Part shown: positions 2,616 to 40,847 of the stretch, in pieces | How positions within the stretch are numbered: the first letter of the stretch is position 1 | Layout: each line of letters starts with the position of its first letter | From: a virus | Taxonomy: Duplodnaviria > Caudoviricetes | Direction: 5' to 3' (one strand) | DNA length: 58,142 nt | IMG/VR virus record: IMGVR_UViG_3300013129_000001 | Coordinates: 1-58,142 of that record | Made by a program: the position numbers and the translations under genes | Notes under the pieces: generated by a model | Told to the model about the DNA's origin: nothing | The model's database searches: none | What the model saw: only the letters and a program-made list of their open reading frames with translations

Positions 2616-4600
2616 GCGACAAAAAACAAAAATCTGACAAAGCAATGAGCAATTTCTCCATATGGCTTCACACTCAGCTGGTCAAGGAAACGAATAATTT
2701 CCAAATTGAGTCGCCTCTTTTCCCAGCGCAGATAGATATGATTGCGGATTGGTTTGAAGCAACTAGTTCAACATTGCTCAACCCAGATCTAGAAAAATTG
2801 AGCCTATTAAATGCCTACGAAATGGCACTGCAATGGCAAAAACAACAATTATCCAAACAATACAAAACAAATGATGTAGTCTACCAATGGAAAGATAAAT
2901 GGAAAATAGTCAGATTGCCATTATCCTCCTTCTCTAGTAAAACTCCTGCCAAAGAACATATCACCGATTTGGAAATAGAACGAGAAATAATGTCTACAGA
3001 TGAGGCACAGGAAGAGTTCATCAAATCATATGGCAAAGAGGATTCATTTTTTGCAGGAGAAAGAACTGGAGAAGATTCAAAAGGCAAAATCTTTTATTCC
3101 CTGAGAGATCCGTCCAATATCCCCAAGGCCACAATGGAATTAGGTACATCAGAAAAAGATCCATCCAAACTATATGTTGTTGAGGTTTTCTCTTCCGATC
3201 CGCTAGATAACGACGGAATGCACCTTTATAGAAATAGAATAAAGGAATTCTTCAACTATCTAAAAAATGAGGGATACCGGTTTCTGCCAGTAGAAGCTCC
3301 AGATACAAATAAAGTCAAACCTCAGGATTTAGACGAGATAGAATGCGACGATCAATTTGGAATGCCGTATGAATTTTGGGGAATAGGTGGAAGTTCAGAA
3401 CAATATTTTGACAGCGTACAAGAAGCCTATCAGTCGGGATGGTCAGGAGCATATTGGTATGAAAGTGCAGCTAAAAATGTATTGGATGATTTAATAACAT
3501 ATGCCCAAGACAGAGATGAGTTGGATTTATTGCAAAGTGCCTTCGAAGGATTCTCTGTTGAAACAAAAGATAAATATGGAAAATCCGTTACTGTACATAA
3601 GGGGTTTAATGATTTGGCATGGCAATGGTGGATAGAGCAAGAAGACTATATAACATGGGAACATGAAAATCCCGACGATCCTCCGGATGAAGAAGACTTT
3701 ACGACTAAACCAGACCCAAACCAGCAATCTCTTCCCGGCATACCACCGCCAGTTCCAGTGCTTGATAAAAAAGCATATGATGAAGCAATGAAGGCATATG
3801 ATGAAGCACTGAAGGCGTATGAAAAAGAAAGAGGAGAAAGAGAAGAAGAATTTGAAGCCTATAAGTTTGAAAACTATGCCTATAACGAAATAGAAAAAGC
3901 TAAAAAAGACTTGGAATCAAAAAGAAAATCAAAAAAACGAACGGTAGCCTGCATGAAAACACATATACATAAAATTGCCGACAAAAAGACAGAGCATATG
4001 CCAGACGGTGAAGCCTTGGCACTCTATGTACAAACGCTCAAACAGTATCTTAAGGACAATCCAAATATTTGCGACGAATGGAAAGATCTGATTTCCAAGA
4101 TGCCGGCACCACGAAAAGTAAGACAAGATTTTTCTCTTCAGGAATGCAAGATACTTTATGAGTCTCTCGAATATTTGTGGGAAAAAATAACTGGCGAGAG
4201 AATTATACCAGAAAAAGAAATCATCCTAGCACCAGAAAGTCTAACCGGCAACTATTGGATGTTGAATAATGGCGTTCTCCTTAGCGGCGTCAATCATTAT
4301 ACCATTATCAAACAGAATACCAATCTCATATGCTCTTTATTGGGTATTGGAGGAATGACACTTCAAGAATACTTATGTTCTCGTCCCAATAAGCTTATAG
4401 CTTACATCATACGGAATGGTGGAGTTAGATTATTCATCACCCAAGACAAGAGACTCTATGCCCAAATGAATCCTAAAACCTATGGGGATTGGGGGAGAAA
4501 CAAAATAAGAAAACTAGACTTTCCTCTTAAGGCTGTAAAACTCATTGACATCAAGGCTCCCTATGAAGGATGGGCATCAGGGATAACAGTCAAATTATGA
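2612..4600 (+). CDS. Multidomain hypothetical protein with a PcfJ-like segment
   Basis: 662-aa ORF with ATGA overlaps at both ends. FYSLRDPSNIPKATMEL resembles PcfJ-like domains. Contains a YDEAMKA/YDEALKA heptad repeat and a separate C-terminal domain after KIAD. Confidence 0.65.
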   Translation: MSDKKQKSDKAMSNFSIWLHTQLVKETNNFQIESPLFPAQIDMIADWFEATSSTLLNPDLEKLSLLNAYEMALQWQKQQLSKQYKTNDVVYQWKDKWKIVRLPLSSFSSKTPAKEHITDLEIEREIMSTDEAQEEFIKSYGKEDSFFAGERTGEDSKGKIFYSLRDPSNIPKATMELGTSEKDPSKLYVVEVFSSDPLDNDGMHLYRNRIKEFFNYLKNEGYRFLPVEAPDTNKVKPQDLDEIECDDQFGMPYEFWGIGGSSEQYFDSVQEAYQSGWSGAYWYESAAKNVLDDLITYAQDRDELDLLQSAFEGFSVETKDKYGKSVTVHKGFNDLAWQWWIEQEDYITWEHENPDDPPDEEDFTTKPDPNQQSLPGIPPPVPVLDKKAYDEAMKAYDEALKAYEKERGEREEEFEAYKFENYAYNEIEKAKKDLESKRKSKKRTVACMKTHIHKIADKKTEHMPDGEALALYVQTLKQYLKDNPNICDEWKDLISKMPAPRKVRQDFSLQECKILYESLEYLWEKITGERIIPEKEIILAPESLTGNYWMLNNGVLLSGVNHYTIIKQNTNLICSLLGIGGMTLQEYLCSRPNKLIAYIIRNGGVRLFITQDKRLYAQMNPKTYGDWGRNKIRKLDFPLKAVKLIDIKAPYEGWASGITVKL

Positions 4601-5253
4601 ACTGGTACAAAAAGGCACAAAGCAAACAGAATTTCAACGTATGGCTGTCTAACCAAATACAACAGCTAACGGAGAACTTTTCCAAGGGCATGGGACACTA
4701 CGAATACTATATACCCAAAATAGAAGAATGGGTGAAAGATACAAATCCCAATCTGGATGACTTTGATTTTAATAAGGCGGCAGCATCAGCATTGGCTCAT
4801 GAACATAAGGAGTATCAAGATTGGTCACCAGAACAAATTAAAAGGAATATGAACCGATTCCGATTTAAAAGCCAACGAATAAACCCCGATGCTCCCAACT
4901 TTGCAGTGGATATCAGAGATAAATCAATAAAAATACCTCAGCGATCTAGAAAAACCATAAATGACGCTCTATATGATTTGGGTAACTATCATACCGAAAT
5001 TCCGTTACAAAGCATATTTGATATTTGTAGAAAAGAAAATGTAATAGCCATACAAGAAGATGGGACACCGTGGAGTGGATTCCTAACAGGCGGTGCAGAA
5101 TGTGGATCGGAAAAAGCAAAAAATCAAAACGCAAAATTCGATCTAGCTATACAAGGTGTTGATGGAGAATATGTTCCGGCTGAAAATATGATTATTCTGA
5201 ACTGGTGTAAAATGCAAAGCGGAAAATACGAAATAGTCTGTTATGTGAGTTAA
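4597..5253 (+). CDS. MNWYKKA-leader hypothetical protein
   Basis: Start re-called to ATG 4597 (ATGA overlap with the upstream stop); begins MNWYKKAQ. Confidence 0.8.
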   Translation: MNWYKKAQSKQNFNVWLSNQIQQLTENFSKGMGHYEYYIPKIEEWVKDTNPNLDDFDFNKAAASALAHEHKEYQDWSPEQIKRNMNRFRFKSQRINPDAPNFAVDIRDKSIKIPQRSRKTINDALYDLGNYHTEIPLQSIFDICRKENVIAIQEDGTPWSGFLTGGAECGSEKAKNQNAKFDLAIQGVDGEYVPAENMIILNWCKMQSGKYEIVCYVS

Positions 5254-5256
5254 GAT

Positions 5257-5523
5257 GTGAACTGGTATAAAAGAGCAAAGACAGATATTCTAGATTGCGA
5301 TGATTGCAGTAAGTCCACAATCTACGAAGGCTATATGCTCAAGGATGAAATATGGGATTCCGTGGCAGATAGGAATACAAATCTGTGCGTAGACTGTATT
5401 GAGAAGAGACTAAAACGCAAACTGACAAAAGACGATTTTCAGCCAATAGGATTCAATTTTTGGGAAGACATGAGGAAGTTCAAAAGCCCACAATTACTTA
5501 ATCGAATGGGAATAGTAAAATGA
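5257..5523 (+). CDS. NWYKRA-leader small zinc-finger-like protein
   Basis: GTG start; two CxxC pairs (CDDC, CVDC). Confidence 0.75.
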   Translation: MNWYKRAKTDILDCDDCSKSTIYEGYMLKDEIWDSVADRNTNLCVDCIEKRLKRKLTKDDFQPIGFNFWEDMRKFKSPQLLNRMGIVK

Positions 5524-5876
5524 ACTGGTATAGAAGAGCACAATATCAAATACATCTTTGGCTGGATGACGAAAGAGATCCCAAAGACCCCAAAATACAA
5601 AAAGATTTTGGAGCCAAGGGAGATGAACTCTGGGTCAAAACAGTAGAAGAGGCTATCCCCCATATAGAAAGTGGAGGGGTAACTTCTATCTCATTTGATA
5701 ACGACTTAGGAGAGGGTCTGAAAGAAGGGCGTCACTTGGCCGAATGGATAGAATCAATGGCATATCATAAGAAAATACCACAAATGCAATGGACTGTACA
5801 TAGTAAAAATTATCCAGCCAGTATGAGCATTATAATGGCAATGAAAAATGCAGATAAATACTGGAATGAAAAATGA
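5520..5876 (+). CDS. MNWYRRA-leader cyclic-phosphate-processing receiver-like domain protein
   Basis: LWLDDERDP...WVKTVEEA...ISFDNDLG...G..LAEWI...VHSKN matches the receiver-fold family associated with RNA repair genes. Confidence 0.7.
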   Translation: MNWYRRAQYQIHLWLDDERDPKDPKIQKDFGAKGDELWVKTVEEAIPHIESGGVTSISFDNDLGEGLKEGRHLAEWIESMAYHKKIPQMQWTVHSKNYPASMSIIMAMKNADKYWNEK

Positions 5877-6676
5877 ATATCCTGAAAACCAACTGGTATA
5901 AAAAAGCATCCAGAACCATCAAAGAACATGTTAGGGATGTTGTAGATGCGGACATGGATAGCCCCATATTCATAACGGAAAAATATGAAATCATTGATGG
6001 GGCTCACAGAACTTGCAAGGCATTTTTAACTGGACAGACCGTAGAGGCAATCATTTTATCGCAGAATGACATCAATAAAGCACTTCTGCCTGACGACTCT
6101 AAGTATGTTGGGCAAATATACAGAGATGATCAAAAGGATGAATACTCTGTCACAAAACTCTTGGAACTCTACGGCAATAAAAAAACAGTAACAATGCAAC
6201 CCGAAATTATCATTAAGCAATCTCAAGATGTATGGGGTAAAAAAGTAGACATCTATGAAATAATGGCAATGGCGAAAAAGAGAATGGAACAATCCAAAAA
6301 AGCCCGTCAAAAAGCAAAATTCCCATTCTCATTAGATATCCTTTGGCAGGAAATATCTAGACACTTTTCCAGTATCAATACCAAAACATCTCTACCTAAA
6401 AAAATTGGCTCTATCAATAATATATCCATTCGTCTGGTCGACGGGGACAAAATTAAGAAGACAAAAAATATGGATTTCGTAGAGGGAGGACATGATCGTG
6501 CTTGGGACTTTATACCCAAAAATGAAATATGGGTTGATGCCTCTATGGATAACGCAAATATCCTGCATATCATCTACCATGAATATATAGAGCGATACCT
6601 GATGAAAACCTACAATATGGCATACGATGACGCCCATGACATAGCCAATGACAAAGAAAAAGAGAGAATCAAATGA
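5873..6676 (+). CDS. NWYKKA-leader protein with ParB/Srx-like N-terminal domain and zincin-like C-terminal domain
   Basis: PIFIT..EIIDGAHR is ParB-like. The C-terminal part has DFVEGGH..EIWVD..YHEYIERYLM..YDDAH. Confidence 0.65.
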   Translation: MNILKTNWYKKASRTIKEHVRDVVDADMDSPIFITEKYEIIDGAHRTCKAFLTGQTVEAIILSQNDINKALLPDDSKYVGQIYRDDQKDEYSVTKLLELYGNKKTVTMQPEIIIKQSQDVWGKKVDIYEIMAMAKKRMEQSKKARQKAKFPFSLDILWQEISRHFSSINTKTSLPKKIGSINNISIRLVDGDKIKKTKNMDFVEGGHDRAWDFIPKNEIWVDASMDNANILHIIYHEYIERYLMKTYNMAYDDAHDIANDKEKERIK

Positions 6677-7338
6677 ACTGGTATAAGAAAGCCACTCTTA
6701 AAATAGCAAAGCATGTATCTGAAACCTCCCATACATGTCTTTACTGCGATTCTATTTTGTCCCCTGTTGGATTTGAAAGAAATGGACGCCATCATTTTCC
6801 TTGGGGTATAACCTACAAATGTACTTGCGGTAAATCGGGAGTGTGGACAAATTCAATACGAGGACCAAAAGAATTTATGGATGTAGTTTTTGGGAATGTA
6901 CCACCAGAAAATGATACGTCATGGGAAGGCTTTTGCAATGACCCCTTCTGTCCCTTCTGTTTTCAGTATATAATGGTTCTTAAAAACGGCGTATATATGA
7001 CAGTTGATAAGAAGCCGGTTGCCATTGTCGGAAAAGATAATAAGTGGTTCTTGCATGAGATAACTAACCTAGACTTATATCTTGCCGAATACAATCAAGG
7101 CACAGAATCATCAAGGTCATACAATGCTAAGTTTATGGGCAAAAGGGTCAATCGTGATACGGTTTCCAGATCGGTTGACGTTTATGGTTGTCGCTCCCTG
7201 AAACACAACATGGGAATACTCAAGAATTCAAGTTTAGAATATGGCGAAGGCGAATACAAGCCCATCTACGAATGGATAATTAAAAACAAAGCCAAAATAC
7301 CAACTGCCATGATTGACGAACTTAAGAGCGAGATCTAA
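6673..7338 (+). CDS. MNWYKKA-leader Cys-rich hypothetical protein
   Basis: Contains CLYC, CTC and CPFC motifs; ATGA-coupled to the upstream gene. Confidence 0.75.
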   Translation: MNWYKKATLKIAKHVSETSHTCLYCDSILSPVGFERNGRHHFPWGITYKCTCGKSGVWTNSIRGPKEFMDVVFGNVPPENDTSWEGFCNDPFCPFCFQYIMVLKNGVYMTVDKKPVAIVGKDNKWFLHEITNLDLYLAEYNQGTESSRSYNAKFMGKRVNRDTVSRSVDVYGCRSLKHNMGILKNSSLEYGEGEYKPIYEWIIKNKAKIPTAMIDELKSEI

Positions 7339-7340
7339 TA

Positions 7341-7661
7341 ATGAACTGGTATAAAAAAGCACAGAATAATGAGCCATACGTGGATTTGTTTTCAAAAGAA
7401 TTCGAAGAAGAACATAATAAACGAATGCAAAAAGTCTATGAGAAAACAATAGAATATCAAAATCAATTGGCTAAAGAGAGCAATATCTTTAGGAAAATAT
7501 TAGAAAGCGAAAGAAAGGGGAAAACTATAAAAGAATGGTATGAAAGCACAAACAATCCAAAATCTAAAACCAGAAATGCCCTTCTTAGTCGTCATATATA
7601 TAAAACTACAAACGAATGGGAAAATGACCTGAAAACTAACCCATTCTATCAAGTGAAATAA
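7341..7661 (+). CDS. MNWYKKA-leader hypothetical protein
   Basis: 106-aa ORF beginning MNWYKKAQ, tightly packed with its neighbours. Confidence 0.75.
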   Translation: MNWYKKAQNNEPYVDLFSKEFEEEHNKRMQKVYEKTIEYQNQLAKESNIFRKILESERKGKTIKEWYESTNNPKSKTRNALLSRHIYKTTNEWENDLKTNPFYQVK

Positions 7662-7662
7662 T

Positions 7663-8010
7663 ATGAACTGGTATAAAAAAGCAAAAGCAGAAACACTATG
7701 GCATCTCTCTAACCAAAAATTTGATGCCTTTGACCCCTACATGACTGCTCAAGGTATCATATGGTTTTCAAAAGATAAAAATGACCTGTTGCAAAATTTA
7801 CACGGAGCATCTATTAACAAAAACAAACCCGTCTACCTATATGAATGCAAGGTCAATATGATAAAAACAGCTGGATGGGACGAATACGATAAATACGGAA
7901 TATCACAATTAAGATCTATGGGATTTGATTCTATTAACCTAGATGACGATGTTGCCGTACTGAATGTTAAGAATATAACCATATCTAACCTCCAAGAAGT
8001 AATAATATGA
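7663..8010 (+). CDS. MNWYKKA-leader ADP-ribosyltransferase-fold-like protein
   Basis: Pattern LWH..FDAFD..G.IWFS..VYLYE..L..MGFDSI..VAVL resembles the small ART domains of polyvalent phage proteins. Confidence 0.5.
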   Translation: MNWYKKAKAETLWHLSNQKFDAFDPYMTAQGIIWFSKDKNDLLQNLHGASINKNKPVYLYECKVNMIKTAGWDEYDKYGISQLRSMGFDSINLDDDVAVLNVKNITISNLQEVII

Positions 8011-8213
8011 ACTGGTATAAAAAAGCTACAGACATCAAGAACTTCCTATGTATTGTATATGACCCAATAACCAGCATAACACTACAAGAATATACTGTCG
8101 AAGCAGCAGACTTCTATTACGCCAGCCATATAGCCGCTAATAAATTTGAAAAAGAACAACCCACCCTGTCTAAAGAACATCCTAATTGGAAAGTGGATTA
8201 TCTAGAACTATGA
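8007..8213 (+). CDS. MNWYKKA-leader small hypothetical protein
   Basis: 68 aa with ATGA overlaps on both sides. Confidence 0.7.
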   Translation: MNWYKKATDIKNFLCIVYDPITSITLQEYTVEAADFYYASHIAANKFEKEQPTLSKEHPNWKVDYLEL

Positions 8214-8683
8214 ACTGGTATAAAAAAGCACAGAATAAGAAAACCCTTTATATCATGAGGGGCATTGCTGGATCTGGCAAAAGCACCCTAGCCAATGAAC
8301 TAGGACAAAATGGCATAGTCCTTGGTTCTGATGATTTTTTCATGGTTAACGGCAAATACGAATTCGATCCTGATGCCCTTGATTATGCTCACTGGTGGAA
8401 TCAAGGCAGAGTAAAAGAAGCAATGAAAAAAGGCATATCACCAATAGTAGCAGATAATACCAATACTCAGGCATGGGAAATGAAGCCCTATGTTCTTCTG
8501 GCTCAAAAATACAATTACGACGTACAAATCAGGGAGCCTAATACGCCTTGGAAATTTGACGTAGAAGAATTAGCCAAGAGAAATACCCACGGAGTTCCCA
8601 AGGATATCATAGAAAAAATGATACAAAAGTGGGAGCCAGATGTTACCCTAGATGATATAATGAAATCGGAGAAACCTAAATGA
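8210..8683 (+). CDS. MNWYKKA-leader P-loop polynucleotide kinase (N4BP2/AAA_33-like)
   Basis: Start re-called to ATG 8210. Motifs YIMRGIAGSGKST, SDDFF, DNTN..WEMKPY and RNTHGVP. Confidence 0.85.
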   Translation: MNWYKKAQNKKTLYIMRGIAGSGKSTLANELGQNGIVLGSDDFFMVNGKYEFDPDALDYAHWWNQGRVKEAMKKGISPIVADNTNTQAWEMKPYVLLAQKYNYDVQIREPNTPWKFDVEELAKRNTHGVPKDIIEKMIQKWEPDVTLDDIMKSEKPK

Positions 8684-9665: not shown

Positions 9666-9694
9666 ATTTCACCCCTTTATTCTATTCTTCCTAC

Positions 9695-9723
9695 ATTATA
9701 CATACGAACCCAATAATTTTCAA
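9695..9723 (-). promoter_or_regulatory. Sigma70-type promoter of the homing endonuclease
   Basis: Minus strand TTGAAA-17 nt-TATAAT, about 30 nt upstream of the ATG at 9665. Confidence 0.7.
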
Positions 9724-9734
9724 GATAAAAGTGC

Positions 9735-9768: not shown

Positions 9769-9794
9769 GGTTTTCAACTATAGATTACTGACGA

Positions 9795-10667
9795 TTAGCT
9801 ACCAGCCGTTACGAGAACTTCAGCAAGAGCGTAATCGTTAATGATTACAATACCGACTTCCTCATAGATGACCCAACCTAGCCTGAGCTTCTTGGGGTCA
9901 TCAGCAGGTAGAACAGTGATGTCCTGACGAATCGGGAATGCACCAACGTACTCAGCCGGAGCGAGCAACATGACTTTGGTGGTCGGGCAACGAGAGCTGA
10001 CATGAATATCAGCCGTGAACAGATGTCCGAACAAACCAGTCGTTAGAACTTCCTTCTGAGTGGCTTCATCGTATACCGTCTTACCGAAGTTACGAATGTC
10101 GGCATAACGAAGAGCGTGGCAAACGATCTTGCCAACGGTCAGGTCATGCTGTTCAATCGTAGCAAACGCCTGATTAAGGGCGTTCAAGCTGAGGGCACCA
10201 CCAGTAGAAACTACGATATTCGCCGGATTGCCAGCAATGGCAGCGAGAATAGCGTTGAAGATGTTGAGGTCTTCTTCCTTCTGGATGGCTTCCTTAGCCT
10301 TAATTTGGGCGCGGTCTACAATGTAGAACCTACGAGCCTTGACTTCCGACAAACGAATCGTCGGGTTAGTAGCAATTTCGAAAGTAGGAACAAGAATTTC
10401 CTCGCCTTCCGTAATCATGTCCGGTACAGCACCGCGTCTTGAAATGACGGCTGCGGTAGCGCGAACGTCTTTTTCATAACGAGCATAAGCACCCTGAGGT
10501 AGTTCGTCTACCATGAGGAGTTTACGACCAACTGCTTGATACTCTAGAGCCCTACGAATCGGTTCAACCATTGCCTGAGCAAGAGCGACACGACCTTCGG
10601 GGGTATCGAGAGCCTGAGCGATCAGGGCTTCTCTCTCTGCGTTTACTGCTTTCTTATCAATAGCCAT
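9795..10667 (-). CDS. Major capsid protein (HK97 fold)
   Basis: 290 aa with a strong AAGGAG RBS, followed by a terminator and downstream of the protease and decoration genes. Motifs such as LEYQAVGRKLLMVDELPQG, VPTFEIA and GWVIYEEVGIVIIN fit HK97/encapsulin-like shells. Confidence 0.85.
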   Translation of the reverse strand: MAIDKKAVNAEREALIAQALDTPEGRVALAQAMVEPIRRALEYQAVGRKLLMVDELPQGAYARYEKDVRATAAVISRRGAVPDMITEGEEILVPTFEIATNPTIRLSEVKARRFYIVDRAQIKAKEAIQKEEDLNIFNAILAAIAGNPANIVVSTGGALSLNALNQAFATIEQHDLTVGKIVCHALRYADIRNFGKTVYDEATQKEVLTTGLFGHLFTADIHVSSRCPTTKVMLLAPAEYVGAFPIRQDITVLPADDPKKLRLGWVIYEEVGIVIINDYALAEVLVTAGS

Positions 10668-11546: not shown

Positions 11547-14500
11547 TTACTTCTCGCCATAACGAGTCAAACTCTCGTCAAACGACTTATTGCCAATCGT
11601 AAAGGCTGAAGCAATCCTCTTGCTGAGTTCGTTAACGGGGTCGGAAGCCTTGATGTCCTTGGATTCCATAACAATCGCAGGACCCGCATGGACTTCCTTT
11701 GATTCCTGAGTTTCAGCCTGTTTCTTAATCTTAGGATACATACTATCGGCTACCGAGGCGATCTTATCAATTTCAACCTTGGACAGAGCCTCGACAACGT
11801 GTTCATAGGCTTCTTCAGTAATTCTCTTCGTAGCGAGTAACTTAGCAGCAATTTCAACAGCCTTCATCCTTCTGGCAACCGCTATTCTCTCTAACTGAAC
11901 GTCCTTCTTTTGTTGGACGGTCTTGAGCATTTCATCATTGATACCCGGCATACCCTTCTGAACTTCCTTTTCGTGACCCATATAGGCACTGTCAATCGGA
12001 ACATCCGGTCCCTTTAGATCCTTATTAATCGCAGAGTCGGCTTCCTTTTCTTTGCCCATATAAGCGTCCTTACGAGAAACATCCGGTCCCTTGTTAGGTT
12101 CATTGATGAGGGAATCAGCCTTAGATTCCTCGCCCAACTTCTGATCATTGCGAGGAACTTTAGCTTCTACATCTTTTTCTACCGTTTCAACTTCCTTCAT
12201 CTGCTTGGCTTTCTTAACCACCTTTTCTTCCTTGGCGATTACGGTGCCTTTGATTTCGTTGTTGATTGCAGGCATACCCTTTTGAACTTCTTTTTCCTTG
12301 CCCATGAATGCCGAATCTACAGCAACATCGGGGAGCTTCAATTCTTTATTGATCGCAGAATCAGCTTCTTTTTCCTTGCCCATGTAGGCATCCTTGCGAG
12401 GAACATCCGGTCCCTTGTTAGGTTCATTGATGAGCGAATCGGCCTTGGATTCCTCGCCCAACTTCTGATCATTGCGAGGAACTTTAGCTTCTACATTGCC
12501 TTCAATATCCTTAACCTTGGTAGGAGTAGCTGCGATTTTAACAACTTCCTCACCGACCCTCATGATTTTATGAGTTTGCATAGCTATTGCCATTTCTTTA
12601 TCTCCTGTTTTATCTGAAGATACAGCGTCTGAAGATACAGCAGCCGAAGATGCCGTATCGGAAGAAACTGCACTAGATGATTTTGCGTCTGACAAAGCAG
12701 CGTCCGATGAAGCTGCGTCTTTTCCAACCTCAGCAACTTCAGGAACAACCGGGGCTTCTCCGGTAGCTTCCTTGGCAGCATTGGCTAATTCTTCTGCGGT
12801 CTCCTTTGAAACCTCAATAGTCACTGTTTCAGCAGCCTCGTCAATAGAAGATCCAATATCAATATCAATCTCCTCTTCTGGAACTGCATCAACCGGAGCA
12901 GATTCTTCAACGAAGATATCATTAATAGCATCGAGGTCTTGAGCCGTAAGGACTTTTTCCTTGCCAGACTTGACATCATCTGCGAAAGCCATCAAGAATA
13001 CGTTGTCGTCCTCTGTCGATGCAAACTTCTTCTTCATGCACTTACAGGTTGTTTCTGCTTCCTTCTTAGTGAAACCGTGTAATTTCATTTGATCTTCGAC
13101 GCATTCGTCCATAGGATCTTTCTGCGTATAAACAGAGGCTAGTTTTTCCAGATGACGAACCTTGTTTAGTCCCAGTTTTTCCAATTGACTGCAAACGCAA
13201 TCGGCCAACGGCTTACCCTTGCAAGGTCCGAATGAGGCTACTGCATTTCCGCCCCACTTCCTAGCAATTCTCTCGATGCAATTAGCCATCGGGAATTTGG
13301 TCGTGCCGTTAGTGGCGTTCTTAATCATTCCCTGAACTTTCATCAGTGAAGCAAACTTGGCAACGGCCTGTTTGCAATTTGAGCATCCCTCGACGTTGGG
13401 AACCAAATCCCATTTAACTCTGAGATAATTTTGTTCAGGGTTATTGACATTAACGAACACATCCTTTTCTACTGCCGTCTTGCAAGCGGGGCAAGTAAAC
13501 TCGGTATGTCCTGCGTTTTCCTTGGACGCCTTGCAGTGCTTCATTCCGCAAGCAGGGCAAACATTTCCGTGTTTGGCGGCGTTAGCTGCTATTCTAACCA
13601 GACTTCCCTTGTCCCACTTGGTTTGAGCAGCAACTGGAAGGGCAGGAACTTCTGGGGCTTCAGGAGCTCCGGTAGCTTCGTCCTTACCAACGCTTCTGGT
13701 AGGCTTTGTAATCTTGAATTCAATTTCCTTCTTGACAAGAGCCTCATACTCAGCTCCGCAAGCATTACAAGTACCCTTGCCATTTCCACCCTCTTCGGTG
13801 GTTACGTCAACATCCGAGCTGCCGCATTCGGGACAAATTGACCACGGAGGCTGTTGCTGTCCAGCCGTGGGGATTTCGTCGGGAATTTCGGTGTCAACTT
13901 CGTCGGTTGTCAATGCCTGTATCGGTTGCTCTGTCGGAGCGGGGCCGGGAAGACCAGCTTCGGGGGCTCCGGGGGCAGTTACGCCACCGGGAGTTCCGGG
14001 AATTCCACCACCAGCTCCACCGATTTGAGCCTGCTTCTTTACACCTTTCTGGGATGCCGCGGCCGCATTATACGTAGGAAGTCCGGTTTCAGGAGAGATT
14101 TCTCCGCTTGAACCGGCCGGAGGCATATTTGCTTCCAATCCTTCGCCCGTCATATCTGCCTCGGGAACTGTTTCGCCCGTTGCAGGGGCAATTTCTTCGC
14201 CAACAGGAATTTCTACTGCCTGTTCGCCTGCGTCGGTCTGAACAGCTATAGAAATAGTATCGCCGCTAATGGTTACATTCGTGATTGCAGCCAATTTAAT
14301 GTTTTGAGAAGCAAGTGCTCCCCTTGCGAAACTCTTCAGTGTCGACTTGAAGCTGGGATCATCCTTAGATTTGCAACCAACTTCTGCGAAGGTCGTTTCA
14401 ACAATCGTATCAGCCTTTTTCTTCATAGCCTTTTTCTTCATATCAATGGACTTCGACAGAATGGCCCTTTCTGCCTCACGAGTAATTTTCGCATCTTCCT

Positions 14501-17075
14501 TGCCAACGGCAGCTAGAATTTCTTTTCTTTCCGTCTCTCTGGCTTCCTTGGACTTATCTTCGGAAGCACCCTTCAGAGCACTCCTCAGTTCGTCCTTCTT
14601 ACTTACCTTGATCGTCTGAGTCTTGGCTTCGGCCAGTTTCTCATCAACCTTCTTGCTGATAGCAGCCGGTCCTTGACCATCTTCAGTAGCAACGTCAAGA
14701 GCATCAATAATAACTTCAGGATTAATAGTTACGTCAGCAGCGACCTTCCTAAGTCCCCTTACGAGGGTTTCGGCAATCTCTTTGCTTCCAACGCCAGCTA
14801 CTTTAATATTCTTCTTGCTCCAATAAGCAAGTCTCTTGCTATAATCAACATCCTCGTCCTTGGAGGTATCAAGAATAGCATTGCCAAGATCATAACGATC
14901 CTTGGTTGATCCAACGAGAGAAGCGCCAACCTGACAAGCTTCTTCCGGAGTGCATCCAGTAGCAATAACGGTATTAGCGATAACATCGAGAACCGACTTC
15001 ATATGATCGCCGGCACTCTTGAACATGGCAGAGTCCCTCTTAGCAGCTCTGCCCCAAGGCGTATCGACGGCGTCGAGTTGCCTTTCGGTAATCTGCTGAG
15101 GCTCGGTACCAGTCCTATTTCCCTCTAACTGAGCCTGAGTTACTACATTCGGTGCATTTCCCTTGCGAGGAGAAACGCCATCGGAATGATTTTCCAATTG
15201 CGCCTCTGTAATAACATCACGCCCATCACCATCACGGCGAGGGTTGAGTTTGTTGGTTTTAGCCTGAAGTTGAGCTTCAGTAATGACTTCCTGCTCACCT
15301 TGGCGAAGACCCTTTAGCTGGTCCTCGGTAATCGTGTTCTTCTCTTCTTCGGTCCTAGAATGATAAAGACCCTTTTCAACAAGTTGGGCCTCAGTCACAA
15401 CTTCGGGAGCCTTATTAACTGACTTGGCCCCAGCTTCTTTAGTATTGTTTGTCATTACTGTCTCTCCTTCTTTTATTTGAGTTAAGTCCTTTGCGAATTT
15501 GCCCAAAAAGTATGAAGCCGCTTCCTTCGGATTATTTTTGATCATGTCCTTTTCATTATCTGTTAGTGTCTCGTAAGTCCAAGTCATTTTTTTTGGCGAC
15601 TCTTCATTCTTTTTCTCTGCAACAATAATAAATGAGTCGTCCCTCTTTTTTACAGACAACTTACTACTATTGTCCTGCACTGACGGGACTCTATTTATAT
15701 ACTCAAAAAACTCTTGTTTTTCCTTCCACGAATTTGATAAAACTTCAGTTGCCGTTTTTTGATGCTTCATCTTGGCATCTACTGTAAGTCTCTTACCCAT
15801 GGCATTTTCTCCCATATTATTGATTTTTTCAGTCAAATTTAACAGATTTTGAGATATGACCTGTATTCTTCGAGAATCAAAAGCTCTTGGTTTAGCCGGA
15901 GCCGTAATAGGCAATTTTGGCGATTTAACTAGAGGTGCTGTTGGGGATCCGGTCATAGTTCCAACCGCCGGAGCAGGAGCAGCGGCGCCCGGCAGCGGGC
16001 TTTCTGCCGCAACCGGTGTAGCATCCGGAGGAAGACCGGCCGGAGGAAGTTCAACGCCTCCGGGAGCAGCTCCGGCAGCTGGCGTACCCGATGCTGGGGC
16101 TTCAGCAACACCCGGTATGGAAGGCTGCATATTTCCAAAACCAGCACCAACCAACTCATCAACAAATGTTTGAAGTTCAGACAAAATATTAACCAAATCA
16201 CTTGCAAACTCGACTTCAACCTGCTGTCTATTCTTGATAAGTTGAATGGCAATATTTTCTAGTGTTGACAAAACCTCATTCAGCTGTTGTACTTCTTGTT
16301 GCCCGGCTTGTTTTTCAATCGAAGCCGTTTTAACCATAAACAAACTATTCTGCAAATTGGCGACCTTCTTGACAAGATCATCATTATTTATAAGACCCTG
16401 AATACGACAGGATGGGCAAGCCGGATCAACAACGGCACTGAGTTCTATGAATTTAATCCCATAGTTGTACTCAAAAACGGGATGATTGGTGAATTCCTTA
16501 ATTTCGCCGGTAACTACATTCTTAGCTCTACCCGAAAATGTTCTTCCCTTGCGTTCCTTAATATGAGAACAATAGTCATCCGTTTTTTCAGCCTTATTTC
16601 CGCAAATATTACATACACTATACTCAACAGAACATCCCATAGATACGCCAGTTATATACTCTTCTTCAATGCTTCTACATATATGTGGGAACGCCTCTCT
16701 ATCTACAAAAGATATGGTATAAACAGATTTTTCCTCGGGAAGCCACTCTGCAAAAATAACCTTACCTCTGGCATTTTCAACATTCTGATTATCATGGTTG
16801 GTGAAAAATGGAACGCCCTCAAATGTTTTATAAGCCTTCTTGAGTTCGTCTTCCGAGAAATAGTCACCATTAGAATTAGGCTCATTGGCTTTGATGGCTT
16901 TTGATCTAAAAAACAGAGCCGTTGGGTGCTTTTGAATTTCTGATTCTATAATTTTGGCTTTATCACTGCCGGGTTCTATGCAAATAGTTCCAGAAGCCAA
17001 TTTAACAAGCCCAACTTTCCCATCAAAATCTATGGGAAGTAACTTATTGTCACATAAGGCAAATTTGTAGATCAT
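11547..17075 (-). CDS. Giant prohead protease/scaffold polyprotein (1842 aa)
   Basis: N-terminal capsid-maturation protease motifs N.NGD.F, NHD, VSMGC and ELSAVVDPA, with a CNICG..CSH insert. These are followed by low-complexity linkers, zinc ribbons and repeats. Lies between the portal and capsid genes. Confidence 0.8.
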   Translation of the reverse strand: MIYKFALCDNKLLPIDFDGKVGLVKLASGTICIEPGSDKAKIIESEIQKHPTALFFRSKAIKANEPNSNGDYFSEDELKKAYKTFEGVPFFTNHDNQNVENARGKVIFAEWLPEEKSVYTISFVDREAFPHICRSIEEEYITGVSMGCSVEYSVCNICGNKAEKTDDYCSHIKERKGRTFSGRAKNVVTGEIKEFTNHPVFEYNYGIKFIELSAVVDPACPSCRIQGLINNDDLVKKVANLQNSLFMVKTASIEKQAGQQEVQQLNEVLSTLENIAIQLIKNRQQVEVEFASDLVNILSELQTFVDELVGAGFGNMQPSIPGVAEAPASGTPAAGAAPGGVELPPAGLPPDATPVAAESPLPGAAAPAPAVGTMTGSPTAPLVKSPKLPITAPAKPRAFDSRRIQVISQNLLNLTEKINNMGENAMGKRLTVDAKMKHQKTATEVLSNSWKEKQEFFEYINRVPSVQDNSSKLSVKKRDDSFIIVAEKKNEESPKKMTWTYETLTDNEKDMIKNNPKEAASYFLGKFAKDLTQIKEGETVMTNNTKEAGAKSVNKAPEVVTEAQLVEKGLYHSRTEEEKNTITEDQLKGLRQGEQEVITEAQLQAKTNKLNPRRDGDGRDVITEAQLENHSDGVSPRKGNAPNVVTQAQLEGNRTGTEPQQITERQLDAVDTPWGRAAKRDSAMFKSAGDHMKSVLDVIANTVIATGCTPEEACQVGASLVGSTKDRYDLGNAILDTSKDEDVDYSKRLAYWSKKNIKVAGVGSKEIAETLVRGLRKVAADVTINPEVIIDALDVATEDGQGPAAISKKVDEKLAEAKTQTIKVSKKDELRSALKGASEDKSKEARETERKEILAAVGKEDAKITREAERAILSKSIDMKKKAMKKKADTIVETTFAEVGCKSKDDPSFKSTLKSFARGALASQNIKLAAITNVTISGDTISIAVQTDAGEQAVEIPVGEEIAPATGETVPEADMTGEGLEANMPPAGSSGEISPETGLPTYNAAAASQKGVKKQAQIGGAGGGIPGTPGGVTAPGAPEAGLPGPAPTEQPIQALTTDEVDTEIPDEIPTAGQQQPPWSICPECGSSDVDVTTEEGGNGKGTCNACGAEYEALVKKEIEFKITKPTRSVGKDEATGAPEAPEVPALPVAAQTKWDKGSLVRIAANAAKHGNVCPACGMKHCKASKENAGHTEFTCPACKTAVEKDVFVNVNNPEQNYLRVKWDLVPNVEGCSNCKQAVAKFASLMKVQGMIKNATNGTTKFPMANCIERIARKWGGNAVASFGPCKGKPLADCVCSQLEKLGLNKVRHLEKLASVYTQKDPMDECVEDQMKLHGFTKKEAETTCKCMKKKFASTEDDNVFLMAFADDVKSGKEKVLTAQDLDAINDIFVEESAPVDAVPEEEIDIDIGSSIDEAAETVTIEVSKETAEELANAAKEATGEAPVVPEVAEVGKDAASSDAALSDAKSSSAVSSDTASSAAVSSDAVSSDKTGDKEMAIAMQTHKIMRVGEEVVKIAATPTKVKDIEGNVEAKVPRNDQKLGEESKADSLINEPNKGPDVPRKDAYMGKEKEADSAINKELKLPDVAVDSAFMGKEKEVQKGMPAINNEIKGTVIAKEEKVVKKAKQMKEVETVEKDVEAKVPRNDQKLGEESKADSLINEPNKGPDVSRKDAYMGKEKEADSAINKDLKGPDVPIDSAYMGHEKEVQKGMPGINDEMLKTVQQKKDVQLERIAVARRMKAVEIAAKLLATKRITEEAYEHVVEALSKVEIDKIASVADSMYPKIKKQAETQESKEVHAGPAIVMESKDIKASDPVNELSKRIASAFTIGNKSFDESLTRYGEK
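11935..12500 (-). repeat. Two-copy coding direct repeat in the scaffold, period 324 nt
   Basis: VEAKVPRNDQKLGEESKADSLINEPNKGPDV.RKDAYMGKEKEADSAINK...EKEVQKGMP.IN occurs twice. GGCATACCCT is at 11947 and 12271. Confidence 0.9.
15075..15404 (-). repeat. Six [IV]TExQL-like peptide repeats in the scaffold
   Basis: VTEAQL, ITEDQL, ITEAQL, ITEAQL, VTQAQL, ITERQL. Confidence 0.85.
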
Positions 17076-22826: not shown

Positions 22827-24083
22827 TTATGCTTCAACCACTGGAAACTCATCGGTCTCGGCAGCAGACGGGCTAGAATCATTAAGTCCAAGTTCTTCGG
22901 CAGCATCTTGTATTTTGTCATCACCCTCGTCCTCTATCCCAAAACCATCAACTGCATCATTGGCATTTTTCAGGGTGAAATTGACGCCCGCTGCCGGGCC
23001 TCCTGTTACATGGAATACAGGATTTTCACCATTACTAACGATAACTACGGGAGTTTCCATTTTCAAAATACTCTCTTGACCATTATCAACAATCTTTATC
23101 TGCATGTCTTTCTTGGTAACAAGAGTTGATTTTTCCGGAAGACTAACTTGTGCTGTCTTCACTATTTTTGAATCTGTTTTTGATGCCTCTACAACATCGT
23201 GGGCATAAACAATCCCGTTATATCTTTCCATCATAGCAGATGCAGCCTTATGAATGCAGGCAACCCTAGGTATATCAACATTATAATGCTCAGCAACCTT
23301 GGATATAATATCCTCTTCGTTAAGTCCAGATTGCTTCATTTCAATAATATCATCAAACATCTGATAATTATCATCTTTTTCCTTGGGAGTATCAATAGAT
23401 GCCAACTTAACAAAGGAAACCTTAGAGGAAGCCGTCAAATCGCTTGTCTCTTCGCCCCTGCCTTCTGACAATCTTCTTTCAATGGAGTACTGATGGGGTC
23501 TTGGCTTTCGAGTCCTTTCGCCATGAGCTAATTCCATTTGATTCCCACCGTCATCGGTGAATACTTGGAATCTTTGGTTGATATAACCACCAACCCATTT
23601 CCCATTTTTATCCTTGAACTCTCTAGAAAACTTATCCATGATATGTCTGCGCCACATAGCTTCATGACAATATACCCTACTAGGATCATCGTCAAAAACA
23701 ATACCATCAAGGCAATAGTGACGACAGTTATACGTGCTAATTAATCCATGTCCGGCAGACTGCTTCGGCAGCTTGGGGCAAATCCTCATGTCCATATTGC
23801 TATATAGGGCATCTTGCCTCATAACCGCTTGGGCTTCCCTAATGATTTTTTCTTTCATTTTACCCTCTCTTATTTGCGTTATATTATGCTTGGATAAAAC
23901 CCCAAACAAAACTTCTGCCGCATTACCTGAATTTTCTTTCGTGAATATAGCCCGGCATGTGTCAACTATATCCTTTTCTTCATTTTTACCAGCAACCTCA
24001 ATGAGACTCATAGAAGCTTCTTCGGCTGATTTCTGAGCCCTAACCCAATTCTTCAAATCATCTGGACTGGTAAAAAATTGCAT
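22827..24083 (-). CDS. Hypothetical head-region protein with a Cys/His cluster
   Basis: Likely start is ATG 24083 (MQFF). Contains CPK..CRHYC..CHE and internal VKLAS and VKTAQ motifs. Confidence 0.75.
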   Translation of the reverse strand: MQFFTSPDDLKNWVRAQKSAEEASMSLIEVAGKNEEKDIVDTCRAIFTKENSGNAAEVLFGVLSKHNITQIREGKMKEKIIREAQAVMRQDALYSNMDMRICPKLPKQSAGHGLISTYNCRHYCLDGIVFDDDPSRVYCHEAMWRRHIMDKFSREFKDKNGKWVGGYINQRFQVFTDDGGNQMELAHGERTRKPRPHQYSIERRLSEGRGEETSDLTASSKVSFVKLASIDTPKEKDDNYQMFDDIIEMKQSGLNEEDIISKVAEHYNVDIPRVACIHKAASAMMERYNGIVYAHDVVEASKTDSKIVKTAQVSLPEKSTLVTKKDMQIKIVDNGQESILKMETPVVIVSNGENPVFHVTGGPAAGVNFTLKNANDAVDGFGIEDEGDDKIQDAAEELGLNDSSPSAAETDEFPVVEA

Positions 24084-24084
24084 A

Positions 24085-24291
24085 TTACTCTTTTCTCTCA
24101 AACCCACTTGGTGACGGCCTATCCTTATATTTCAAATGAGGTCTTATATCCTCTAACTTTTTGATAACCTTTTTAATGGCCGTTTTTGTCTTTCCTATAT
24201 TATTCCTATCTAAATGCTCTAAAGCCTCTTTTAGGCCATCGTATGCCTTTTCCATGTCATCGGCTAGGGTGGCTATACGATAGATCTTCAT
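24085..24291 (-). CDS. Small MKIYRIA-leader helical protein
   Basis: 68-aa ORF whose start overlaps the upstream stop (TAATG). Confidence 0.7.
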   Translation of the reverse strand: MKIYRIATLADDMEKAYDGLKEALEHLDRNNIGKTKTAIKKVIKKLEDIRPHLKYKDRPSPSGFERKE

Positions 24292-40805: not shown

Positions 40806-40847
40806 TTCCAAATACGATTTAGGGTTATCCAAACAACATTACTATAT

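Follow-up and report, generated by a model that had tools for sequence, protein, structure and literature searches.

A short N-terminal leader on nine consecutive genes of a huge phage resembles a motif of the prohead protease and its scaffold

Nine consecutive genes of a phage-G-like huge phage, of which the 58,142-nucleotide stretch analysed here (the window) is a fragment, carry a common leader with the consensus M-N-W-Y-K-K-A. Judged by sequence comparison, this leader fits phi-phi-[KR]-x-A-[S/Q], a motif common to the N-terminus of the prohead protease and to the scaffold tails. The tie between a cargo leader and the head-protease/scaffold motif is new. We lean, with moderate confidence, towards the view that the leader is a T4-CTS-like propeptide, at once a site for the prohead protease and a mark of head-internal cargo. 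The features concerned are compiled in Table 1.

Table 1. Leader genes, head-module genes and other motif-bearing features of the window
Feature	Positions	Strand	Length (aa)	Motif sites and family matches
Array gene 1	4597..5253	+	218	leader MNWYKKAQ (4597-4620)
Array gene 2	5257..5523	+	88	GTG start; leader (V/M)NWYKRAK; two CxxC pairs
Array gene 3	5520..5876	+	118	leader MNWYRRAQ, then cREC_REC receiver-like domain (Pfam PF20274, 6e-20)
Array gene 4	5873..6676	+	267	NWYKKAS at residues 7-13, after MNILKT
Array gene 5	6673..7338	+	221	leader MNWYKKAT; Cys-rich
Array gene 6	7341..7661	+	106	leader MNWYKKAQ
Array gene 7	7663..8010	+	115	leader MNWYKKAK; second, internal site NMIKTAG at residue 66
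Array gene 8	8007..8213	+	68	leader MNWYKKAT
Array gene 9	8210..8683	+	157	leader MNWYKKAQ, then P-loop kinase, polynucleotide-kinase-like
Major capsid protein	9795..10667	-		N-terminus MAIDKKAV; phrog_2522 2e-66
Prohead protease-scaffold fusion	11547..17075	-	1842	phrog_18299 4e-15
Its N-terminus	17055-17075	-		leader-like MIYKFAL, residues 1-7
Its second site	16992-17012	-		GLVKLAS, residues 22-28
Its protease fold	16308-16994	-		about residues 28-256
Its protease/tail junction	16320-16340	-		FMVKTAS; more sites along tail
Head-module protein adjoining portal gene	22827..24107	-	426	KIIREAQ (88), SFVKLAS (232), KIVKTAQ (315)
ORF with second leader flavour	24085..24288	-	67	start MKIYRIAT
Head-module protein	24291..25271	-	326	start MKISRMA; internal GMIKTAS at residue 113
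Two AAA+ ATPases	25314-31359			PF00004, 8e-25 and 3e-19; same block
206-aa protein	34367..34987	-	206	RRNWYKIAK nine residues from C-terminus
Head-module protein	35767..38682	-	971	start MNIKKISQ; internal SKNWYKTAQ (539), KVVKTAT (684)
ORF with second leader flavour	38805..39164	-	119	start MKIYKIAAG
Trypsin-like peptidase	39729..40832	-		Pfam Trypsin_2 4e-20; same block
675-aa protein	52300..54327	+	675	start MKIIRISTT; phrog_13211 8e-8 (residues 580-668)

Conservation and portability of the leader

Six-frame translation of the window yields exactly nine matches to NWY[KR][KR]A, all on the + strand, and the DNA pattern AAYTGGTAYARRARRGC recovers the same nine, with no match in 100 dinucleotide-preserving shuffles. 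The first bases of their Asn codons are 4600, 5260, 5523, 5891, 6676, 7344, 7666, 8010 and 8213, and the nine leaders are the starts of consecutive genes between 4597 and 8683, as the sequence-only reading had recognized. A start codon immediately precedes the motif in eight cases (seven ATG and one GTG, at 5257); in the ORF that starts at 5873, the ninth copy does begin at residue 7 (MNILKT-NWYKKA). Once the leaders are stripped, no pair among the nine proteins matches by BLASTP at E ≤ 1e-3, in keeping with their description as unrelated genes. Conserved DNA is limited to the 21 nt ATG AAC TGG TAT AAA AAA GCA, and the DNA upstream is not conserved. Eight departures from the consensus fall within N-W-Y-K-K-A, five of them synonymous (TAC, AAG twice, GCC and GCT) and three changing AAA to AGA, which bears out the earlier statement that variation is synonymous or K to R.

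The leader is found on proteins of about 38 unrelated families, from 23 viral contigs. A set of 61 tagged proteins, made up of 47 of the NWY type (the nine from the window included) and 14 from phage G, separates into 46 BLASTP families after removal of the leader. Across 39 copies of the leader in other viral contigs, the Asn position is encoded by AAT (24), AAC (12) or AGT (3), the Tyr position by TAT (31) or TAC (8) and the Ala position by GCA (21), GCT (7), GCG (3) or GCC (1), in addition to Ser and Thr codons. Such synonymous drift between phages argues for conservation of the leader as a peptide. The residue that follows it is most commonly Q (23/54), K (8/54) or S (7/54).

Homologues of the cREC domain of array gene 3 illustrate how the leader is attached. 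Among 58 of them, a WY-type leader occurs in 12, a phi-phi-K-x-A/S type in 11 and an F..WLEN type in 4, while 18 have at most six residues before the first strand and 13 bear other extensions. Orthologous cREC domains carry MNWYKKAQ, MKIYKLAS-type leaders or none, and the leader forms align position for position; the leader is thus an optional add-on to orthologous cargo domains. The AF2 model of the gene 3 product (pLDDT 93.7) likewise places the leader outside the predicted cargo fold, the first 10 residues averaging 57 and each later 10-residue block reaching at least 94. Homologues of the gene 9 kinase also bear several leader types, in a search that recruits candidates by shared 5-residue words and is hence biased towards leader-bearing matches.

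The NWY tag had been regarded as a portable, T4-CTS-like feature of the array. Its portability across unrelated families, its add-on nature, its position outside the cargo fold and its match to a head-assembly motif support this view, but it is not array-specific and is better described as one form within a wider leader family, which includes MKIYKIA-type starts in the window and in its closest complete relative, G004 (476 kb), as well as the MKRLIKK[AS] starts of phage G. Six-frame translation of phage G yields 22 matches to its MKRLIKK[AS]-like leader, 12 of them directly after a start codon, and 5 of 14 leader genes are in the head region (11.9 to 39 kb); genome-wide, phage G has no excess of the motif (40 sites versus 34.2 ± 5.0 in shuffles).

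The motif in the protease-scaffold protein and head module

The AF2 model of the window protease (pLDDT 83) has its best Foldseek match in T4 gp21 (5jbl), with herpes proteases next; residues 1-27, which include both N-terminal motifs, score below 50 and precede the fold, which begins at residue 28. The whole 1842-aa protein has 7 motif sites versus 0.78 expected, and sites at residues 23 and 247 are found in the proteins of both the window and G004. In a family set of 151 sequences, consisting of the window protein and the best 150 of 3019 matches, 82 start with M-phi-x-K-x-A and 102 have [ILVFMYW][KR]xA[SAG] within residues 11-70, whereas control windows of the same length have the latter in 3/149 to 26/126 sequences. 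The scaffold tails of this set (178,870 residues) contain 188 phi-phi-[KR]-x-A-[SAG] sites against a shuffle expectation of 29.5 ± 6.0 (maximum 48 in 200 shuffles), an about six-fold excess that is inflated to some degree because homologous conserved sites are counted repeatedly. After the motif Ala in the tails, at a position not imposed by the search, S and Q are each enriched 3.1-fold.

A survey of 48 ORFs located the motif elsewhere in the window. The 426-aa and 971-aa proteins each have three sites, with 0.09 and 0.27 expected, respectively. The positional counterparts of the 971-aa and 326-aa proteins in G004 start with MKIIKVSQ and MKINRTQ, and the C-terminus of the 675-aa protein resembles a baseplate-hub/tail-lysozyme family. 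The terminase has one loose match, and a few further ORFs bear the motif in addition to the leader genes. No site was found in the decoration and portal proteins, both AAA+ ATPases, the ribonucleotide reductase, the CCA enzyme or a 662-aa protein, nor internally in the major capsid protein, which is 55% identical to phage G gp27 and 91% to its G004 counterpart. Within the window, the motif is limited to a subset of head-module proteins.

Array proteins and genomic setting

The domain labels initially given to the array proteins fared unequally. The Pfam cREC_REC match confirms the receiver-like label of gene 3, and matches of gene 9 to Pfam AAA_33 (5e-18), phrog_505 (3e-15) and phrog_2071 (2.5e-31) agree with a polynucleotide-kinase-like protein. 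The zinc finger of gene 2 is visible as two CxxC pairs in the translation, its sole family match being to phrog_6053, of unknown function (5e-14). An ART-like nature of gene 7 is weakly indicated by a BLASTP match to an ART-PolyVal protein (E 1e-4) over residues 1-40, a stretch that includes the leader. For gene 4, the ParB+zincin label is not confirmed: the protein has no Pfam match even at E ≤ 10 and no Atlas match; it matches phrog_17560 (3e-7) across residues 14-69 and has a tagged orthologue at L014:1626-2030. Residues 5-83 of gene 1 are similar to the N-terminal part of the 662-aa protein encoded immediately upstream, which carries no tag (BLASTP E 8e-5), and genes 1, 5, 6 and 8 have no Pfam or PHROG match.

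Among tagged proteins from elsewhere are ART-PolyVal, GNAT, a UvrD-type helicase, a 2H/Acb1-like domain and an SLT domain accompanied by a membrane segment. Some of them make unusual cargo, for instance an intein-containing helicase longer than 1000 aa and proteins that have a membrane segment. This repertoire overlaps the domains of polyvalent proteins, for which packaging and injection are predicted (PMC5512222).

The array and the head genes are on opposite strands; on the + strand, the array follows the gene for a CCA-adding enzyme within a single, tightly coupled operon, and for this reason it may instead be an early/middle cytoplasmic RNA-repair module. In G004, the leader begins 15 of 642 heuristic genes; 12 of these flank the capsid gene on either side, at 407-426.5 kb, and share its strand, and 21 of 60 motif sites fall into the 400-440 kb bins. 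Proximity to head genes is not general: tagged clusters in G001 (58.9-62 kb and 114-117.5 kb) are 40-100 kb away from its head genes (10.7-21 kb), and tagged genes in G002 and G003 are distant from the capsid gene.

Proposed role of the leader and alternatives

We propose that M-N-W-Y-K-K-A, in its general form M-x-phi-phi-[K/R]-x-[A/S] with Q or S next, acts as a short N-terminal propeptide that would copy the motif recognized, and probably also cut, by the gp21/assemblin-fold prohead protease that the phage itself encodes. As the leader shares the protease/scaffold motif, tagged proteins are predicted substrates of this enzyme, which works within the assembling head. As head-internal cargo, they would assemble together with the protease-scaffold core by virtue of a leader sufficient for targeting; removal of the leader inside the capsid would free them, so that they could be ejected along with the DNA. 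On this view, the array would be a cargo island of high variability next to the capsid gene, encoding small RNA-repair and host-modifying effectors such as the cREC receiver domain and the P-loop kinase. The trypsin-like peptidase is an alternative candidate enzyme for a motif containing Lys/Arg.

Diverse internal proteins of T4 are directed to the core by N-terminal propeptides of 10-19 residues, which gp21 cleaves off; gp21 itself carries an N-terminal site fitting its own logo (PMC9026906, PMC3012670). With seven residues, the window leader is shorter than any T4 CTS, and the residue following it varies.

This looseness, for a protease site, would also suit a docking peptide that binds the inner capsid surface or the scaffold and is retained on packaged cargo, a possibility we consider unlikely. 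The motif would then be repeated along the scaffold tail for many capsid subunits and be single on each cargo, like encapsulin cargo-loading peptides; the capsid protein (phrog_2522) belongs to the HK97-type fold family, as do encapsulins, and ties of the motif to the protease-scaffold and head-module proteins fit binding as well as cutting. Against mere docking, the window protein and that of G004 both have the motif immediately ahead of the protease fold and again where protease and tail join, the kind of places where the related T4 gp21 and herpes UL26 cut themselves. Furthermore, internal leader copies split fused cargo in the manner of a polyprotein site (for example, L018:854-2995). The occurrence of the motif inside proteins also makes a protease site more suitable than a purely N-terminal address label.

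We deem it quite improbable that the leader is a turnover or unfoldase tag with no capsid link, an N-terminal signal to a host or phage AAA+ machine. Its polar-phi-phi-basic-x form presumably resembles ClpX N-terminal signals, and either a ClpX-type degron or the two large AAA+ ATPases of the same block could limit the lifetime of toxic effectors, ART-like, kinase and similar cargo being potentially harmful if long-lived, or pass effectors to a chaperone. However, such a tag leaves unexplained the motif in the disordered protease N-terminus, the six-fold enrichment in scaffold tails, the copies within large, conserved proteins of the head module and the clustering beside the capsid gene.

Within the window genome, leader uniformity exceeds what peptide selection alone needs: Asn is encoded by AAC in all nine leaders versus 25 AAC and 58 AAT (30% AAC) in the bodies of the same genes, and Ala by GCA in seven of nine. 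Copies also tend to identity inside one contig (three in L007), six of the nine starts form ATGA overlaps with the upstream stop (the other three lie 1-3 nt past it), no Shine-Dalgarno-like sequence is visible upstream of the nine genes, and no DNA homology links the island with its counterpart in the relative whose capsid protein is 91% identical. Still, that the 21 nt are a translation-initiation/coupling module or micro-homology for cassette exchange, with a functionless peptide, is the least credible reading, since codons drift between phages while the peptide stays, the motif is useless for initiation where it lies within proteins or 20-45 residues from the start of the protease, and the variants MKIYKLAS and MKRLIKKAS have chemistry rather than nucleotides in common. 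Recombination at the leader may nevertheless explain island shuffling, adding to a function of the peptide rather than replacing it.

A heptapeptide leader on unrelated genes

The window, a 58-kb contig, encodes a major capsid protein with 55% identity to gp27 of Bacillus phage G and 91% identity to its counterpart in the 476-kb viral contig G004, the closest complete relative of the window; this marks the contig as part of a phage-G-like huge phage. Its six-frame translation contains exactly nine copies of NWY[KR][KR]A, all at the positions where the sequence-only reading had placed them, and no match was obtained in 100 shuffled-sequence trials of the window. In eight of the nine array genes the leader immediately follows the start codon; in the ninth, at 5873, it begins at residue 7 behind a six-residue extension (KT-NWYKKA), and ACC replaces ATG. 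The genes are packed as a single operon, with an ATGA overlap with the preceding stop at six starts. Conservation does not reach beyond the 21-nt leader. The DNA ahead of it shows none among the nine genes, and no pairwise similarity was found among the nine proteins once the leader had been removed. Searched as DNA, the array matched nothing in the phage collection or in G004. Two of the products belong to clear families, cREC_REC and AAA_33 P-loop, in line with the receiver-like and polynucleotide-kinase labels they had been given. The ParB+zincin identity proposed for the product of 5873-6676 was dropped, because neither Pfam at E <= 10 nor the protein Atlas supported it. Pfam detected no ART-PolyVal domain in the window proteins, even at E <= 10.

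Coordinates of the leader genes, the head genes and their neighbours in the window and in related sequences
Feature	Source	Coordinates	Strand	Details
Open frame running off the window start	window	2-535	+	
CCA-adding enzyme, 662-aa protein, then nine leader genes	window	609-8683	+	
Untagged 662-aa protein	window	2612-4600	+	
Array of nine leader genes	window	4597-8683	+	
LAGLIDADG homing endonuclease gene	window	8676-9665	-	PF03161, 2.6e-12; between array and capsid gene
Head and packaging block	window	8676 to ~52 kb	-	capsid, decoration-like, 1842-aa protease protein, portal, two AAA+ ATPases, trypsin-like peptidase, large terminase
Major capsid protein	window	9795-10667	-	
1842-aa protease-scaffold fusion	window	11547-17075	-	
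Portal protein	window	19367-22753	-	1128 aa
Second leader flavour	window	24085-24288		MKIYRIAT
AAA+ ATPase gene	window	25314-29210	-	1298 aa, PF00004
AAA+ ATPase gene	window	29383-31359	-	658 aa, PF00004
Second leader flavour	window	38805-39164		MKIYKIAAG
Second leader flavour	window	52300-54327		MKIIRISTT
Three leader proteins	L060 (locus in G004)	17169-17567, 12754-13161, 9967-11724	-	132, 135, 585 aa
202-aa ORF	L060 (locus in G004)	9362-9970		overlaps CCA-enzyme gene end
Leader protein of >1000 aa	L002	3001-6018		
713-aa leader ORF	L018	854-2995	+	starts MSWYKKAQ
Stand-alone tagged protein	L018	475-849		
Leader ORF starts	phage G, NC_023719	11937, 16055, 28218, 35181, 39023, 73330, 81748, 103932, 147654, 179204(-), 245994, 254652, 401815, 446709		MKRLIKK[AS]

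A scan of IMG/VR with a degenerate 20-nt pattern matched 27 stretches on 23 contigs, eight of them >200 kb; ORFs adjoining the matches often begin with the same leader or with a variant such as MSWYKKAQ, MNWYKQAQ or MNWYKRSQ. With the leader removed, 61 tagged proteins (47 NWY-type and 14 from phage G) fell into 46 BLASTP families. Pfam recognised 8 of 28 tagged proteins from other contigs, the domains being ART-PolyVal, GNAT, 2H/Acb1-like, DUF5661, two AAA_33 kinases, SLT behind a membrane segment, and a UvrD-type helicase with zinc ribbon and intein. ART-PolyVal is present in tagged proteins of two loci, L007 and L018 (1.2e-17). The 713-aa ORF of L018 carries a second leader copy, KTNWYKKSQ, at about residue 595, some 119 residues from its end, and this internal copy precedes a domain that occurs elsewhere as a stand-alone tagged protein (in L018 itself and in L015). 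The leader proteins of >1000 aa in L002 and L019 combine a Top1-type zinc ribbon, a UvrD-like helicase and an intein splicing domain.

Among 58 homologues of the cREC protein, 12 have a WY-type leader, 11 a phi-phi-K-x-A/S leader (phi, hydrophobic; MKIYKLAS, MKIIRLAS, MNIYKLAS), 4 an F..WLEN-type extension and 13 other extensions, and 18 have at most six residues ahead of the first strand; one leaderless homologue is encoded on a contig of 3.9 Mb. Leaders of the WY and MKIYKLAS types share alignment columns. The AF2 model of the window cREC protein (pLDDT 93.7) is confident except for its first ten residues, whose mean is 57. For the kinase cargo, the best 120 homologues comprise 72 with WY-type leaders, 6 MKIYKLAS-like, 11 F..WLEN, 6 with none, 18 with other extensions and 7 truncated, in a set biased toward leader-bearing homologues since candidates were recruited by common five-residue words. 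The third extension, [ST]F..W[LI]E[NS] (MTTFRSWLENQ, MISFNLWLENQ, METFRQFLENS), is thus seen on both cREC (4/58; P0017-P0039) and kinase (11/120; P0210-P0329) homologues. It may serve as leader in a further lineage of phages, one with a protease that, like T4 gp21, cleaves behind Glu.

A second flavour of leader opens three further window genes (see table), and looser forms of it start the conserved 971-aa (MNIKKISQ) and 326-aa (MKISRMA) proteins of the head module. The three leader proteins of L060 have in common a longer N-terminal module, MKxxKxAxGKxxxKxxxKxWxxxGKKAGW, after which they diverge. The NWY leader is missing from phage G, in which at least 14 ORFs open with a leader particular to that phage, MKRLIKK[AS]. 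In six frames, 12 of the 22 matches to the loose form of this peptide lie directly after a start codon and open ORFs of at least 63 aa. Paralogues sharing an HGT[SD] motif make up six of the 14 proteins; two of these six (gp53 and gp141) map to the label 'gp336 multigene family' in the published annotation table, and five of the 14 genes lie within the head region, at 11.9-39 kb.

The leader motif in the protease-scaffold fusion

The N-terminal domain of the 1842-aa head protein matches a prohead protease family (phrog_18299, 4e-15). A Foldseek search with its AF2 model (pLDDT 83) returned T4 gp21 (5jbl) first, with E 1.2e-3 and a TM-score of 0.54 by target length, and herpesvirus proteases next; a comparison of the sequence with the PDB gave nothing meaningful, the best hit being a nitrite reductase at E 0.088. 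As judged from its model, the domain is a predicted prohead protease of the gp21/assemblin fold. In the protease alignment, H94 is invariant and S145 nearly invariant, and the two are candidates for the catalytic His and Ser.

The protein starts with MIYKFAL and carries GLVKLAS at residues 22-28. Residues 1-27 of the model have a pLDDT below 50 and the fold begins at residue 28, so both peptides, like the leader of the cargo, belong to a flexible N-terminal extension. A search with the first 260 residues against 1.84 billion representative proteins gave 3019 matches, the best 150 of which are mostly fusions of 1200-2500 aa. When these 150 are taken together with the window protein, M-phi-x-K-x-A opens 82 of 151 sequences, and [ILVFMYW][KR]xA[SAG] occurs within residues 11-70 in 102 of 151, against 3/149 to 26/126 in control windows of the same length. 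The N-terminal logo, phi-[I/V]-K-[T/L]-A-S, lies about 26 residues ahead of the conserved start of the catalytic domain. A further site closes the protease fold (FMVKTAS in the window protein, RMIKTAA at the same place in G004).

The scaffold tails of the same 151 proteins (beyond residue 270; 178,870 residues) contain 188 matches to phi-phi-[KR]-x-A-[SAG], compared with 29.5 +/- 6.0 after shuffling, and 536 matches to the shorter phi-[KR]-x-A-[SAG], compared with 118 +/- 11.5, in shuffles that ignore the relatedness of the sequences. When the residue after the motif Ala is left free (402 tail sites), Ser and Gln are each enriched 3.1-fold; the residues that most commonly follow the cargo leader are Gln, Lys and Ser.

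Across 48 window ORFs, sites are concentrated in the 1842-aa protein (7 versus 0.78 expected), the 426-aa protein encoded beside the portal gene (3 versus 0.09) and the 971-aa protein (3 versus 0.27, including an internal NWYKTAQ), and they also occur in the 326-aa protein, at the C-terminus of a 206-aa protein (NWYKIAK) and in the leader genes. The motif is absent from the capsid, decoration and portal proteins, both AAA+ ATPases, ribonucleotide reductase, the CCA enzyme and the 662-aa protein; the terminase has one loose match. In phage G, the motif occurs close to each end of the protease gp19, as GLVKTAA (residue 41) and as VLLKIAS (residue 272), and the genome as a whole shows no excess (40 sites versus 34.2 +/- 5.0 in shuffled sequence).

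Propeptide, tether or other signal

On balance, and by analogy with the capsid-targeting sequences (CTS) of T4, we take the leader to be a propeptide bearing the recognition and cleavage motif of the prohead protease, a reading to which we give somewhat better than even weight. Proteins starting with the leader would then be substrates of an enzyme acting inside the prohead. We infer that the leader is cut rather than bound, that the protease of the fusion is the enzyme, that the leader suffices for targeting, and that the cargo is present in virions and ejected.

Several points argue against the propeptide reading. The leader is very short, some of the tagged proteins would be unusual cargo, and the shuffle controls ignore relatedness. 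The array shares strand and operon with the CCA enzyme and not with the head genes, and adjacency to head genes is not general. In G004, 12 of the 15 leader genes lie at 407-426.5 kb, flanking the capsid gene on its strand, and in both genomes the island sits between the CCA-enzyme operon and the capsid gene; its orientation in the window is opposite to that in G004, and the two islands have no DNA similarity. The related contigs G001, G002 and G003 have few NWY-type genes (8, 2 and 3), clustered and far from the head genes. Adjacency as a general rule was therefore rejected: it is true for the window and G004, not for G001-G003.

A binding-only form of head targeting, in which the leader is recognised and left in place, is unlikely. 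A complex prediction for protease residues 29-256 with residues 1-36 of the cargo encoded at 7341-7661 returned scores of 0.00, 0.32 and 0.00, made without controls, and weighs on neither side as to binding.

A turnover tag or a purely nucleic-acid element is, even when the two are taken together, slightly less likely again. As the sequence-only reading had held, it is the peptide that is under selection: 39 copies outside the window keep it, with codons free at synonymous sites. In the window, the Asn codon of the leader is AAC in 9/9 cases, versus 25/83 Asn codons in gene bodies, and leader copies inside one contig tend toward identity. Such uniformity exceeds what selection for the peptide would require, and it suggests that leaders are, in addition, copied or exchanged inside a genome. 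The idea that the leader is a start signal common to the genes of the phage was rejected, as it opens only 15 of 642 heuristically called genes of G004.

A fuller model, which we put forward tentatively and hold rather less than evenly probable, builds on the propeptide reading and makes the heptapeptide an address label with which phage-G-like huge phages mark the proteins that they carry inside the head and inject. During assembly, the N-terminus of the cargo would occupy the protease domains of the giant fusion in the manner of a pseudo-substrate and so tether the cargo, which cleavage at maturation would free. The same cargo families (cREC, P-loop kinase, ART) would travel under NWYKKAQ, KIYKLAS, KRLIKKAS or F..WLEN according to lineage, with each leader matching the specificity of its own protease, and the 21-nt leader would double as a joint for the exchange of cargo cassettes.

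Among the closest known systems is that of T4. According to the available portions of PMC9026906 and PMC3012670, N-terminal propeptides of 10-19 residues bring diverse internal proteins into the core and are removed by gp21, which has an N-terminal site of its own fitting the same logo; the tagged set differs between close relatives and includes an ADP-ribosyltransferase. As in IPI, IPII, IPIII and Alt, the window has a short N-terminal peptide common to otherwise unrelated proteins. It differs in that the hosts of the leader are phage-G-like huge phages, the peptide has 7 residues, contains Lys and ends in Ala/Ser rather than Glu, up to nine tagged genes share an operon, the protease carries a giant scaffold-like tail in the same polypeptide, and the system is known from sequence alone. 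Since gp21 cuts at glutamyl bonds (PMC9026906, available part) and the leader has no Glu, it is by its sequence an analogue of the T4 CTS and not a member.

In SPN3US and phiKZ (gp245/gp175, motif AXE), head and ejection proteins have N-terminal propeptides that contain the cleavage motif several times over, and the protease is self-cleaving, as the accessible text of PMC10052503 reports. Those propeptides span 20-254 residues and differ from protein to protein, unlike one portable heptapeptide, and both motif and lineage are other. Herpesvirus UL26 resembles the fusion in having an N-terminal protease of the same fold family joined to a scaffold. Herpesvirus cleavage sites end in Ala, followed by Ser. 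Herpesviruses are, however, viruses of eukaryotes, and we know of no array of tagged cargo proteins in them. UL26 cuts itself at the protease-scaffold junction (PMC4498786, in the part available).

Polyvalent proteins (Iyer et al. 2017) and the Dar/Ddr proteins of P1 overlap with the cargo in domains (ART-PolyVal, helicases, peptidoglycan hydrolase) and in predicted delivery with the DNA, and P1 DdrB is processed and packaged in the head (PMC5512222, accessible part). There, effector domains are fused in one giant polypeptide; here, the proteins are separate and small, each with its own leader, and those of the window (68-267 aa) have at most one recognised domain, none showing the two or more fused effector domains of a polyvalent protein. 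Encapsulin cargo-loading peptides are short and terminal and steer unrelated enzymes into an HK97-fold shell; they are usually C-terminal and not removed, with no protease, portal or DNA involved. Portal-less loading of this type was rejected, because the portal, terminase and tail genes of the window mark a tailed phage.

We found no description of the leader in the literature, its motif strings matching only unrelated papers, and the available part of the polyvalent-protein paper (PMC5512222) does not mention such a leader. The principle is already known from T4; the motif, the phage lineage, the size of the arrays, the set of leader variants that head the same cargo families in different lineages and the connection with a giant protease-scaffold fusion are new. 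To our knowledge, huge phages carry genes without an assigned role by the hundred, and hardly any of these phages has been cultivated. If the address-label model is true, sequence alone would show which proteins thousands of uncultivated huge phages inject, and if the leader marks head-internal cargo, the delivered proteins would probably be first-strike counter-defence and RNA-repair enzymes. The analysis also offers a candidate cleavage motif for a family of proteases that numbers about 3000 relatives. As far as we know, recognition of the capsid-targeting peptide is unsettled even in T4; here, the receptor may be the protease itself, which is testable. A seven-residue head-loading tag would give phage engineering in laboratory strains a compact tool. 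Because phage G can be cultured and carries a leader of its own kind, it offers a bench test of the prediction. Phage G particles contain many nucleic-acid enzymes (PMC12484599, available part), and specificity thus looks low.

Neighbouring genes

The 3' end of the LAGLIDADG gene overlaps that of the last array gene by 8 nt. The gene looks like a mobile insertion, because it is absent at the matching place in G004. The untagged 662-aa protein and the first tagged protein have a common N-terminal domain (BLASTP E 8e-5), and the C-terminal part of the former resembles, by eye in translations, the separate 202-aa ORF of L060.

The capsid proteins of the window and G001-G004 begin with MAIDKKA, MINKRSV, MAFDKNG, MAYTKNN and MSLVKSY, hydrophobic at positions 2-3 and with Lys at 4-5. 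These N-termini are loosely leader-like and suggestive, too weakly to count as evidence for a shared leader on the capsid protein. The portal protein is longer than the 745-767-aa open frames of G001-G004; its matches to them cover residues 11-395 and 761-1123 and leave the middle uncovered, which indicates an insertion of about 370 residues. Pfam gave no intein match in the window portal. The C-terminus is a DUF559/REase-like domain common to the relatives. The two AAA+ ATPase genes lie between the portal region and the terminase. The open frame at the window start begins with a long Thr run, TTTTTTTGTGTTTTTTTTTT, which may be a low-complexity linker belonging to a larger protein that the end of the contig truncates.
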